The notes under the pieces were generated by a model. The model had not been told where the DNA came from. It saw nothing but the letters and a program-made list of their open reading frames with translations, and did not search any database. DNA of 17,616 nucleotides from a virus. Its lineage: Duplodnaviria; Heunggongvirae; Uroviricota; Caudoviricetes. Within the stretch, counting starts at the first letter, position 1. Each line of letters begins with the position of its first letter. Of the stretch, positions 10,226 to 13,344 are shown one piece after another. Both the position numbers and the translations under genes were made by a program. The stretch covers positions 1-17,616 of IMG/VR virus record IMGVR_UViG_2713896768_000001; one strand, written 5' to 3'.

Positions 10226-11290
10226 ATGTCTCTTAACTGGATGCGCCATTTTGAGTTGCAGCTGTTGGACCAGAACGGGCAGGGTATTTCCCTGTCTGAT
10301 TTTAAGGTCACGTTCCAGATCGAGTGGGCAGATACACGCTGGCCGCGCGTGGCAAACGTGAAAATTTACAACCTTTCGACCGATACCACGAACAAGATAC
10401 TGGGGCAGGAGTTTGCAAAAATTCGCATCATTGCCGGGTATGACGGTATTGCGCCGGATGTTGATGCGAGCCAGGTTGGTGTCGCCCGGGAGATTTCACC
10501 AGACCAGGTAGGGCAGGTGAACGGTCAGAACTACGGCCTGATATTTGACGGTGATATTCGCTTCACCGTCACCGGGAAGGACAACATCACCGATTCCTGG
10601 GTGCTGATTCAGGCCATCAGTAACCACGAAGCGTTCCTCTACGCGACTACCATCACCACGCTTGCCGCTGGCTATACCGTTGCGGATCTGCACCGGGCGA
10701 CGATGCAGGATTTCAACGCGTTCGGCGTGACACAGGGCATTACCGGCGATTTTCCTGATACCGTGTTTCCTCGTGGCCGCGCGATTTACTCATCCAGCCG
10801 CAACGTGATGGATAATATTGCTGCGCAGTGCAAAGCGACATGGCAACTGGTGGATGGTCAGGTCCAGATGGTGCCGGAGGATAAATATATTCACGAAGCC
10901 ATTGTGTTGAATGCCAATACTGGCCTGATCGGTATGCCGCAACAAACGATGGGCGGCGGAGTAAACGTGCGGTGCCTGATAAACCCAAACATCCGTATTA
11001 ATGGTCTTATCCAGCTCGATCAGGCTTCGGTGTACCGCGCCGCGCTCGGCAATAGCGAAATCGCACAGTCGCCCGGGCGTATCACTGAAACGGAAGAGAA
11101 CGGCAACCGCGCACTGACCGGCACAACGTCACAGGCTGCCAGCATTGCGACAGATGGCGTTTATATCGTCAAAGCTATCGACTATACTGGCGACACCAGA
11201 GGTCAGGCGTGGTACATGGATTTGATGTGTTTTGCGCGTGGTGCTCGTGAAATGGTTAGTCAGGACACGCTTAAAAAATGGCAGGTATAA
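10226..11290 (+). CDS. Baseplate hub protein (P2 gpD / Mu gp44-like)
   Basis: 354-aa ORF with an AGGAG RBS. Size and position after tape measure and before the spike gene match the hub of P2/Mu-type baseplates. Confidence 0.55.
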   Translation: MSLNWMRHFELQLLDQNGQGISLSDFKVTFQIEWADTRWPRVANVKIYNLSTDTTNKILGQEFAKIRIIAGYDGIAPDVDASQVGVAREISPDQVGQVNGQNYGLIFDGDIRFTVTGKDNITDSWVLIQAISNHEAFLYATTITTLAAGYTVADLHRATMQDFNAFGVTQGITGDFPDTVFPRGRAIYSSSRNVMDNIAAQCKATWQLVDGQVQMVPEDKYIHEAIVLNANTGLIGMPQQTMGGGVNVRCLINPNIRINGLIQLDQASVYRAALGNSEIAQSPGRITETEENGNRALTGTTSQAASIATDGVYIVKAIDYTGDTRGQAWYMDLMCFARGAREMVSQDTLKKWQV

Positions 11291-11291
11291 G

Positions 11292-11642
11292 ATGGGTAAG
11301 GCCAAACTTCTAATTTGTGGTGTTCTTTTATCAGTTGTCGGCACGTCAGAGGCCTTAGCTGATACTCAGTGCGGGCCGTATCGCCTCACTGCGGGCAAAG
11401 AAGGACTAATGCTTATTAACGGGGTAAAACCTGAAACGCAAAAAATGTCTTTTCTCAAGTCTAAAGATGACTACCAAAACATGAAAGCAGAATGGATGGT
11501 TGCAACCGACCAACCCGGCCGCTGGGTTGGGCTTGAGTACATCAAGCGCAACGGCAAAGCCATTCTCAACGCACAGTGGTTGCAAGCCAGCATGGATTCG
11601 CCGCGTCAGTATGCAACATACGACTGCGTGAAGGTGAAATGA
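11292..11642 (+). CDS. Small exported protein with Sec signal peptide (accessory moron gene; function unknown)
   Basis: ATG at 11292, 2 nt after the hub stop, with an AGGT RBS. N-terminus MGKAKLLICGVLLSVVGTSEALA|DTQCG… has a basic n-region, hydrophobic core and A-L-A signal peptidase I site, with no lipobox. The mature protein is about 94 aa with two Cys. By eye it is AT-richer than flanking tail genes and it interrupts the conserved hub-spike adjacency. Confidence 0.55.
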   Translation: MGKAKLLICGVLLSVVGTSEALADTQCGPYRLTAGKEGLMLINGVKPETQKMSFLKSKDDYQNMKAEWMVATDQPGRWVGLEYIKRNGKAILNAQWLQASMDSPRQYATYDCVKVK

Positions 11643-11659
11643 TGATCCGCATCCTTAAA

Positions 11660-11724
11660 CATCAATAATCGTTGATCTCGCGTTTTTATTATGCACTAAT
11701 CTGTACATGTACAGAGAGGGTGCC
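11660..11724 (+). promoter_or_regulatory. Putative promoter/operator of the toxin-antitoxin operon, including a perfect 14-bp palindrome CTGTACATGTACAG (11701-11714) and a GAGAGGG Shine-Dalgarno
   Basis: 82-nt AT-rich intergenic region. The palindrome was checked by reverse complement and abuts the RBS. A weak sigma70-like pair is possible (TTGATC at 11672-11677, ACTAAT at 11695-11700, 17-nt spacer). Palindromic operators bound by Phd/YefM antitoxins are established for this family. Confidence 0.45.
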
Positions 11725-12138
11725 ATGAAAATCATTACTTACACGCAAATGCGATCGGATTTATCTGCAACGCTGGACTGTTTACGCTCTGGTGAAAGCG
11801 TCACAGTTACGCAGCGCGGAAAGCCCGACCTTGTCATCAGTGCAAAATCAGTTGATGAAATCGCTTCCGCAGATGAGGTAAAAACATCTGCGAAAACAAT
11901 AGACACGCATCTTGCGCAATTAATTGCATCGAATTTGTCACCACAGATAACGGAGGGTGTCATGAAGCTTACTAAGCAATTGGATGCCCTTCTTCAGTCT
12001 GATGAGGCTCGCCAGACTATGATGAAGGCCACTAATGCAGCAGTTGCTTTGCAGGGCGTGTCTGAGTCATTTATCAAAGCTCTGCAACATACTCAGACCA
12101 AGCATGCGGACATCATAAAAAAACTGGAAGATAAGTAA
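11725..12138 (+). CDS. Phd/YefM-family antitoxin with an extended helical C-terminal domain (137 aa; typical Phd/YefM is about 75-90 aa)
   Basis: N-terminus MKIITYTQMRSDLSATLDCLRSGESVTVTQRGKPDLVISAKS matches the YefM/Phd N-terminal fold (compare remembered YefM [41 protein letters not shown]). The ATG at 11725 with a GAGGG SD is preferred over the track start at 11707, which lies inside the palindrome. The stop overlaps the toxin start (TAATG). Confidence 0.7.
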   Translation: MKIITYTQMRSDLSATLDCLRSGESVTVTQRGKPDLVISAKSVDEIASADEVKTSAKTIDTHLAQLIASNLSPQITEGVMKLTKQLDALLQSDEARQTMMKATNAAVALQGVSESFIKALQHTQTKHADIIKKLEDK

Positions 12139-12545
12139 TGACTGAGATTACATTCCTTTCGGTAGATGAGGTCATCGCTATTCAGAAGAGCACATTGCCA
12201 AATAGCGGACAACCAGACCGGGGAAAACTCGAAGGTGCCCTCAATCGCGTCGATAACTTACGCATGTATGAAGGATGTGAGGATTTATTTAAATTTGCAG
12301 CTATGTACATGGTTGCGATAGCGAAGTCTCACGCTTTTAATGACGCCAATAAGCGAACGGCTTTCCAGGCCGCCAGCGTGTTTTTGCTTTTGAATGGCTA
12401 TGAACTGAATACCTCAATGGAGTTAGTCAAGCTGACCATCTTTGCTGCTACGGGAGAGGCCGACTGCGATAACACTGCTTTGGCGCTTAAACTTTTGTCA
12501 GATTATAAGAATGAGCTGCTGGCAGATACGATAACTGGCTACTGA
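12138..12545 (+). CDS. doc: Doc (death-on-curing) / Fic-family toxin
   Basis: 135-aa ORF translationally coupled to the antitoxin. It contains the Doc signature H-x-F-x-D-A-N-K-R (SHAFNDANKRTAFQAASVFLLLNGY, codons at about 12330-12356), compared with remembered P1 Doc …GHIFNDANKRTALNSALLFLRRNG…. Confidence 0.8.
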   Translation: MTEITFLSVDEVIAIQKSTLPNSGQPDRGKLEGALNRVDNLRMYEGCEDLFKFAAMYMVAIAKSHAFNDANKRTAFQAASVFLLLNGYELNTSMELVKLTIFAATGEADCDNTALALKLLSDYKNELLADTITGY

Positions 12546-12567
12546 TAGCAAAAAGTAAATTGTACAC

Positions 12568-12592
12568 AACCCGCCGCCGAGCGGGTTTTTTT
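12568..12592 (+). terminator. Rho-independent terminator (stem ACCCGC / GCGGGT, loop CGCCGA, followed by a T7 run)
   Basis: Read directly: aacccgc-cgccga-gcgggtttttttat, 23 nt after the toxin stop and just before the RBS of the spike gene at 12604. Confidence 0.65.
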
Positions 12593-12603
12593 ATGGAGTT
12601 TTT

Positions 12604-13344
12604 ATGCCAATTCCAACTCAATCACAGATCGGCGGCGAGCAGCAGACCGCGCAGGCCATAGCCGATTCGGTGTCTACCCAGATGCGCGTAGCGATGCCAG
12701 GCATCATTCAGTCGTTCGATCCTGACGCTGTAACCTGCACAGTAGAAGTGGCGCTTCGCGGTATTGTTGGCGACGGCTCCACCGAATTAAAACCGCTGGT
12801 GGATGTTCCTGTCATCTTCCCGCGCGGCGGCGGCTGCACGCTGACCTTTCCGGTTAAAGAAGGCGACGAGTGCCTGCTGCTCTTTGCCGACCGTTGCATC
12901 GATTTCTGGTGGCAGAGCGGCGGCGTGCAGGAGACCGTCGACCCGCGCCAGCATGACTTATCTGATGCGTTCGCCATCGTTGGCCCACAGTCGCAAGCAC
13001 GGAAAATCAGCGGTATCAGTACCAGCGCCGCGCAGCTGCGAACCGATGATGGTGCGGCGTTTGTAGAAGTCGCCGCAGGACATAACATCACCATTAAAAC
13101 ACCGGGCCAGCTTACAGCTACGGCTGAAGGTGGAACGACAATCACATCCCCGACTATCACGCTGAACGGCAACGTAACGATTAATGGCAACTTGTCTCAG
13201 GGAATGGGCGAAAGCGGCGGTACTGCGACGATGCTTGGGCCGGTGACGGTAACGAATGACGTAACAGCTTCTGGTATCAGTGTCGCCACGCATAAACATG
13301 GCGGAGTACAGACTGGCGGGGGAACTACCGGAGGGCCGCAATAA
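12604..13344 (+). CDS. Baseplate central spike protein (P2 gpV / Mu gp45-like) with C-terminal beta-helix and His-x-His tip
   Basis: 246-aa ORF with a GGAG RBS. The C-terminal region is Gly/Thr-rich and repetitive (…TITSPTITLNGNVTINGNLSQG…) and ends …VATHKHGGVQTGGGTTGGPQ (HKH at 13291-13299), matching the iron-binding apex motif known for spike proteins. Confidence 0.6.
   Translation: MPIPTQSQIGGEQQTAQAIADSVSTQMRVAMPGIIQSFDPDAVTCTVEVALRGIVGDGSTELKPLVDVPVIFPRGGGCTLTFPVKEGDECLLLFADRCIDFWWQSGGVQETVDPRQHDLSDAFAIVGPQSQARKISGISTSAAQLRTDDGAAFVEVAAGHNITIKTPGQLTATAEGGTTITSPTITLNGNVTINGNLSQGMGESGGTATMLGPVTVTNDVTASGISVATHKHGGVQTGGGTTGGPQ

Follow-up and report, generated by a model that had tools for sequence, protein, structure and literature searches.

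A palindrome of two abutting TGTACA boxes as a probable autoregulatory operator of a prophage Phd-type antitoxin/Doc operon

GTAC-box operators and the prophage cassette

Autoregulation through GTAC boxes is textbook knowledge for the antitoxins of the Phd/YefM type, and an operator of this kind is expected for them. Structural models currently explain conditional cooperativity by a toxin that bridges antitoxin dimers on one DNA face, and a spacing of 12-13 bp between boxes is central to them. The footprinted operator of YefM is made of palindromes with a TGTACA core and that of P1 Phd of palindromes with a GTAC core (PMC1802561), and binding of the TGTACA/GTAC box by these two antitoxins has been established experimentally (PMC1802561, PMC7544224). 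The 12-bp spacing of the YefM and Axe boxes is precisely maintained and constitutes a key feature of these operators (PMC7730913). In the complex of Staphylococcus aureus YefM with DNA, each dimer puts paired helices into one major groove, where Arg10 reads the guanines of TTGTACA while Tyr6 and Ser7 contact the flanking thymines (PMC7544224). In the P1 system, Phd is the repressor and Doc acts as co-repressor (PMC1802561).

We analyzed a palindrome that precedes a Phd-type antitoxin gene in a window of 17,616 nucleotides, i.e., the whole stretch of DNA taken from IMG/VR record IMGVR_UViG_2713896768_000001. The window is an E. coli prophage, and the toxin-antitoxin (TA) cassette that it carries matches the chromosome of strain ABWA45 with 99.9% identity. 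All the large ORFs of the window are found on the + strand and represent tail or baseplate genes; the TA genes sit between a small signal-peptide-like ORF (11292-11642) and a gpV-type spike gene that begins at position 12604. The cassette presents the following features:

11700-11715, no strand: perfect 16-bp palindrome TCTGTACATGTACAGA, which contains the 14-bp palindrome 11701-11714
11702-11713, no strand: putative operator core TGTACATGTACA, invariant among homologous loci, with TGTACA boxes at 11702-11707 and 11708-11713 and GTAC centres 6 bp apart
11714-11720, + strand: Shine-Dalgarno sequence GAGAGGG of the antitoxin gene, overlapping the 16-bp palindrome by 2 nt
11725-12138, + strand: antitoxin gene of 137 aa; its N-domain of the Phd/YefM fold (approximately residues 1-40) is followed by a variable middle and, at F116-K137, by a conserved tail that binds Doc
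12138-12545, + strand: gene of the Doc (Fic-fold) toxin of 135 aa, overlapping the stop of the antitoxin gene by 1 nt
12568-12594, + strand: intrinsic terminator (GC-rich hairpin and T-run) at the end of the cassette; a comparable hairpin ends most homologous cassettes

The toxin assignment relies on a match to TIGR01550 (DOC_P1) of 81.3 bits against a cut-off of 38.65 and on a match to Pfam Fic (E=1.5e-11), and the translation carries the sequence HAFNDANKR, which corresponds to the Fic motif HxFx(D/N)(A/G)NKR. In E. coli G3/10 and related prophages, the slot that is occupied by the TA genes in the window (11643-12567) contains an unrelated insert of ~560 bp (locus L002, 2044-2610), which indicates that the TA module is a moron-like cassette. 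The terminator hairpin (12568-12587) is common to the TA-bearing prophage and to the relative with the different insert. The same baseplate slot holds homologous cassettes in the prophages of Pantoea, Pectobacterium and others, and a blastn search of the cassette against a phage collection returned only a 41-bp match to the backbone.

The operon would constitute a self-contained unit with promoter, operator, antitoxin, Doc and terminator, inserted co-directionally among the baseplate genes of the E. coli prophage. Because of this co-directional insertion, the cassette would need a promoter of its own to be expressed in the lysogen. With an intrinsic terminator mid-way in a baseplate operon of the same direction, one may ask how late transcription reads through. 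We also observed a sub-threshold match to the Rfam family Trp_leader at 12511-12594 (28.4 bits for a gathering score of 41), which falls on the terminator hairpin and almost certainly reflects a generic resemblance between terminators.

The sequence-only reading of this region had reported a perfect 14-bp palindrome at 11701-11714, and CTGTACATGTACAG is indeed read at these positions. The palindrome extends by one extra base on each side, yielding the perfect 16-mer, which is built from two copies of TGTACA whose hexamers abut (centres of the GTAC boxes at 11704.5 and 11710.5); the TGTACA identity of the boxes and their 6-bp spacing had been missed. The surrounding sequence of the window reads ...cactaaTCTGTACATGTACAGAgagggtgccATG... 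As proposed, the 14-mer ends 10 nt before the antitoxin ATG at 11725, and the 82-nt gap in which it lies (11643-11724) is the sole intergenic space ahead of the antitoxin/Doc pair. The single nucleotide that was thought to separate the palindrome from the Shine-Dalgarno sequence does not exist, since the G at 11714 is both the last base of the 14-mer and the first G of GAGAGGG (11714-11720). No further GTAC was found in the intergenic region beyond the two boxes. Two other occurrences of TGTACA were considered as a second operator and rejected: the one at 12304 results from Met-Tyr-Met codons of Doc and is not conserved, and the one at 12561 is unique to the window and is likewise not conserved.

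Across 500 shuffles of the window preserving dinucleotide composition, perfect palindromes of at least 14 bp occurred 1.35 times per shuffle on average (at least one in 75% of the shuffles) and those of at least 16 bp 0.34 times (present in 28% of the shuffles). No other palindrome of at least 14 bp is present in the window. The bare palindrome, taken alone, is therefore statistically unremarkable, and its significance comes from its conservation across species, since the exact 12-mer core is present in 21/21 distinct homologous loci (see below).

Compared to the described systems, the locus presents both clear similarities and one marked difference. The E. coli yefM-yoeB operon (with its L and S palindromes) and axe-txe of pRUM possess, as here, two boxes with a TGTACA core; the site of yefM-yoeB overlaps the -10 region of its own promoter, as the palindrome overlaps a candidate -10 in the window, and it is bound by the N-terminal domain of an antitoxin with the Phd/YefM fold, a fold predicted here as well, with the toxin as co-repressor (PMC1802561, PMC7730913). 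In contrast, the boxes of yefM-yoeB are located 12 bp apart from centre to centre, whereas those of the window are 6 bp apart, such that abutting hexamers form one 12/16-bp palindrome. The toxin partner also differs (YoeB in yefM-yoeB, Doc here), and the antitoxin studied here is 137 aa long with a long variable middle.

The P1 phd-doc operon shares the toxin family (Doc, TIGR01550) and the predicted fold of the antitoxin N-domain (36% identity, rmsd 1.1 Å). When read directly, the P1 sequence is TATAAT-TGTGTACACA-taac-GAGTACAC-GAGG...ATG with GTAC centres 13 bp apart. The layout of -10, boxes and Shine-Dalgarno sequence is the same as here, but the spacing is 13 bp versus 6 bp, and the P1 boxes are of the GTGTACAC type whereas those of the window are TGTACA. 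In addition, P1 Phd is only 73 aa long, and the antitoxin of the window has a different and longer C-terminal part. Finally, P1 Phd and YefM adopt a same-face arrangement on DNA, from which the 6-bp geometry differs.

Conservation of the core and register to a candidate promoter

Homologous cassettes were drawn from complete E. coli genomes, from GTDB (one genome per species), from IMG/VR and from the contigs encoding database homologs. Anchoring the upstream regions on the motif yielded 21 distinct sequences from E. coli, Serratia, Morganella, Enterobacter, Lelliottia, Pantoea, Pectobacterium, Xenorhabdus and uncultured prophages. The exact 12-mer TGTACATGTACA was found in 21/21 of these distinct upstream regions of antitoxin-Doc cassettes, with an information content of 2.0 bits at all 12 positions. 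This conservation contrasts with the divergence of the antitoxins, whose identity to the window protein falls to 33-39% within the set, and with that of the flanks (-45 to -8), which present a near-random pairwise identity of ~32%. The outer C and G of the 14-mer vary among homologs (kept in 18/21 and 15/21, respectively) while the inner 12-mer is invariant. A degenerate form of the motif can be written as YTGTACATGTACAR.

The motif accompanies the cassette in varied contexts, including the baseplate slots of prophages from several genera, a pseudogene on a Pantoea plasmid and other phage regions. In IMG/VR, the 14-mer was detected in 114 stretches, 11 of which carry it directly upstream of an antitoxin of the window family; the remaining occurrences are presumably due to chance. 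Our literature searches did not retrieve the 12-mer in a TA context. The site itself represents a ready-made, sequence-defined marker to locate the cassette. We also noted two degraded cassettes in which the 16-mer or 14-mer palindrome is still intact: one on plasmid pC3_1 of Pantoea sp. C3 (L009, 3001-3114), with a stop at codon 6, and another (L149, 2001-2650) with a frameshifted antitoxin, a fragmented Doc and an adjacent IS element.

A palindrome devoid of function would be compatible with the ~1.35 perfect palindromes of at least 14 bp expected per shuffled window. However, the exact 12-mer recurs in 21/21 diverged loci at a fixed position relative to the candidate promoter described below, and its hexamer is identical to a known operator box. 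This conservation effectively refutes chance, which we regard as a negligible explanation.

The distance from the core to the ATG is variable, ranging from 11 to 17 nt, and homologs present a purine-rich GAGG-like stretch at variable distance from the core. The register to a -10-like element is fixed. This suggests that the core is positioned relative to the promoter and not relative to the ribosome-binding site. The candidate promoter elements of the window are the following:

11672-11677, + strand: candidate -35 TTGATC, separated from the candidate -10 by a spacer of 19 bp (putative)
11697-11702, + strand: candidate -10 TAATCT, whose last T is the first T of the putative operator core

Directly 5' of the core, a T-A-A-n-n-T pattern is conserved at positions -5/-4/-3/0 (T in 21/21, A in 20/21, A in 18/21 and T in 21/21), and 10/21 relatives carry TGn, which is characteristic of an extended -10, immediately before it. 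All 8 E. coli-like relatives present TTG(A/C)nn at the same distance as the -35 of the window despite diverged spacers, and TTGACT or TTGACC is found at 16-17 bp in two other lineages. The window itself is a weak match: TTGATC is followed by a non-optimal spacer of 19 bp and TAATCT agrees at 3/6 positions. A standard sigma-70 scan of positions 11200-12700 found no promoter; the assignment consequently relies on comparative conservation, which points to a putative promoter overlapping the core. An alternative weak promoter, ATGATC-16-AATAAT, lies ~33 nt further upstream and would place the palindrome in the 5' UTR.

This upstream promoter, if it were the real one, would allow the palindrome to be transcribed and to function as an RNA element, i.e., a 5'-UTR hairpin controlling translation or mRNA stability. 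Indeed, the palindrome can form a 6-bp stem with a 4-nt loop beside the Shine-Dalgarno sequence. Several observations argue against this hypothesis, however. The folding energy equals that of the shuffles (z = 0.00), it is the sequence that is conserved with no compensatory pair changes in the core, and no Rfam match was found. Moreover, the palindrome keeps a fixed distance to the -10-like element but not to the Shine-Dalgarno sequence and ATG, and a transcription start ~7 nt past this -10 would lie within the palindrome. We rejected the hairpin on the basis of the null z score and the lack of covariation and of an Rfam match, and we consider an RNA element very improbable.

Cassettes lacking the antitoxin N-domain

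A set of 9 loci, mostly from Xenorhabdus, encode an antitoxin reduced to the C-terminal Doc-binding part (56-57 aa for the forms starting with MEK). An intact Doc gene adjoins in at least three of the nine (L010, L013 and L014). No N-domain was detected within ~3 kb of the 9 loci by HMM search in all six frames, and the exact 12-mer core is absent from 9/9 of them. Four loci (L012, L013, L014 and L026) align with a full-length Xenorhabdus locus and have kept the homologous promoter TTGACT-16-TGcTAATCT; the position of the core reads TGTACAcaTACA in these loci, which abolishes the second box. L010 and L011 no longer have the core but still carry TGcTAA. Since the promoter is retained without an intact core in these N-domain-less loci, the core is not needed for promoter function. 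Judged by these alignments, the core decays upon loss of the DNA-binding domain, and the loci are in effect a natural loss-of-function series.

These loci also bear on the possibility that the palindrome is the site of a regulator other than the antitoxin, such as a host factor or a prophage repressor. The SOS box bound by LexA in E. coli is CTGT-N8-ACAG, with a 16-bp spacing and invariant outer CTG/CAG. The 14-mer reads CTGT-N6-ACAG and is superficially similar to such a box, and the cassette does sit in a prophage. However, the spacing is 2 bp short for LexA, and the homologs vary at the outer C and G but keep the inner 12-mer unchanged. We rejected a LexA box on the basis of this spacing and of the positions that are conserved. 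More generally, the motif travels with the cassette across genomic contexts and genera and decays when the antitoxin N-domain is lost, which renders another regulator highly unlikely.

Overall, the comparative evidence (the 12-mer in 21/21 loci, its loss together with the N-domain, the fixed -10 register and the TGTACA box) supports the autoregulatory operator that the sequence-only reading had put forward. On this sequence evidence, the palindrome is very probably the autoregulatory operator of the prophage Phd-type antitoxin/Doc operon. Like the GTAC-box operators of the Phd/YefM antitoxins, it lies directly upstream of a type II TA operon whose antitoxin has the predicted Phd/YefM fold, it presents a palindromic box with a GTAC core and the DNA-reading residues are conserved; unlike them, its two boxes are 6 bp apart and not 12 bp (YefM/Axe) or 13 bp (P1 Phd). 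The palindrome would therefore belong functionally with these operators, without the canonical two-box spacing. The new element is the architecture: both boxes are merged in a single 12-bp unit, and this unit shows absolute conservation in a Phd-Doc lineage that is widespread among enterobacterial prophages. Such an operator would explain how a toxin module located in a silent late prophage operon is expressed and kept in check in lysogens.

DNA-reading domain and occupancy of the boxes

The antitoxin N-domain scores just below the cut-offs of two family models: residues 1-38 match Pfam PF02604 (PhdYeFM_antitox) with 28.5 bits for a cut-off of 29.8, and the protein matches TIGR01552 with 20.2 for a cut-off of 20.8. 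A profile search with the antitoxin family matches P1 Phd at E=1e-4, and similarity to P1 Phd is undetectable beyond approximately residue 50. AlphaFold2 predicts an N-domain with beta-alpha-alpha-beta-beta topology at residues 2-39 (pLDDT ~85), followed by a low-confidence linker and helices. When this model was compared to the PDB with Foldseek, every top match was a P1 Phd structure (rmsd 1.1 Å, 36% identity), the operator-bound 4ZM0 and 4ZM2 among them, and DNA-bound S. aureus YefM (6L8E) comes next with an rmsd of 1.4-1.5 Å.

In S. aureus YefM-YoeB (6L8E), one dimer binds each TTGTACA box through Arg10 and Tyr6/Ser7. The antitoxin residues that align with those reading the GTAC box, Tyr6, Thr7 and Arg10, are invariant in the family alignments, whereas the position of Gln11 is variable (S/T/A/E). 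The S. aureus operator is organized as GTAC-N8-GTAC; its two dimers occupy adjacent major grooves on a single DNA face and the DNA is bent by ~40 degrees. The window presents GTAC-N2-GTAC.

In the family alignment, the N-domain is invariant, the middle is hypervariable and the C-terminal tail (F116...HADIIKKLEDK, ~20 residues) is invariant, and total length ranges from 94 to 157 aa. An identical antitoxin was found on 506 contigs. Searching the protein database with an alignment of the N-domain for other toxin partners returned 3 truncated proteins only, and scanning the DNA of IMG/VR with the N-domain recovered only Doc-linked members. We rejected a longer gene of 143 aa that would begin at the ATG within the palindrome (11707): the homologs start with MK/MR, and this upstream ATG falls out of frame in those with a gap of 15-17 nt between core and ATG.

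The middle of the antitoxin (window 11845-12070, residues ~40-115) is hypervariable in both sequence and length, and some lineages present unrelated sequence. Within it, we observed an internal in-frame Shine-Dalgarno sequence and ATG, ACGGAGGGTGTCATGAAG (window 11950-11964), with GGAGGG at 11952-11957 and the ATG of Met80 at 11962-11964. This element closely resembles the real ribosome-binding site of the antitoxin gene, GAGAGGGTGCCATGAAA. In 7/7 homologs with xEGxM, Glu is encoded by GAG and follows a codon with G at its third position, although the residue before it is variable (T, R or K), as are the neighbouring synonymous sites. The stand-alone short antitoxins of Xenorhabdus start at about the equivalent of Met80. 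These observations suggest either an internal start that would yield a second, DNA-binding-deficient antitoxin product or a history of fusion and deletion.

The following account of binding and its stoichiometry, of the transcription start, of repression and of Doc's role is inferred from these comparisons. N-terminal dimers of the Phd/YefM fold would read each GTAC box in the major groove, with Arg10 contacting the guanines and Tyr6/Thr7 the flanking thymines, as in S. aureus YefM. Because the core starts on the last base of TAATCT, it covers the region where RNA polymerase would melt the DNA and start transcription. The bound region would run from the final base of the -10 to approximately +5, and its occupancy would exclude RNA polymerase or block the formation of the open complex, such that the operon is repressed. 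By analogy with P1 Phd-Doc and YefM-YoeB, Doc on the C-terminal tail probably modulates this repression.

Box centres 6 bp apart correspond to a helical rotation of ~206 degrees and a rise of ~20 Å. With this spacing, two dimers would be placed on roughly opposite faces of the helix. That all 12 bases are invariant suggests a full reading of the two boxes. Combining these elements, we tentatively propose a hyper-compact operator bound by two dimers on abutting TGTACA boxes from opposite faces, along with a short, DNA-binding-deficient antitoxin starting at Met80; this is a possible scenario, to which we attach limited confidence. If true, the opposite-face geometry would be incompatible with P1-style bridging of same-face dimers by a single Doc, and the long hypervariable linker (antitoxins of 94-157 aa versus 73 aa for Phd) may be what makes it workable. 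Likewise, a product from the conserved internal GGAGG-N5-ATG (Met80) would decouple the neutralisation of the toxin from repression. A natural variant with 6-bp spacing offers a simple test case for the generality of the models of conditional cooperativity.

Alternatively, the operator might be occupied by one dimer at a time, either on one of the boxes or centred on the whole palindrome, with the second box providing redundancy or a sliding register and not a second simultaneous site. Indeed, at 6 bp the wing and minor-groove contacts of YefM dimers (PMC7544224) could collide. The chromosomal Phd-Doc of Enterococcus faecalis, which is also a Doc module, provides a precedent in that its antitoxin recognises a compact single 10-bp palindrome beside the -10 box (PMC13034048). 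However, the fold of this antitoxin is an AbrB/MazE-like beta-sheet and differs from the beta-alpha-alpha-beta-beta Phd fold predicted here, and the invariance of all 12 positions in 21/21 loci argues that both boxes are fully read. The second box was the first to be lost in the N-domain-less Xenorhabdus loci, an order that is uninformative on stoichiometry. We consider single occupancy rather unlikely, though a serious alternative.

Finally, several loci contain orphan antitoxin genes that consist of the C-terminal domain (the Doc-binding tail only) with no downstream Doc: L015 (2923-3159), L027 (2339-2578) and L007 (2992-3201). The orphan gene of L027 is located directly upstream of a baseplate-hub-like gene. 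These genes could be remnants or phage-borne anti-Doc decoys.
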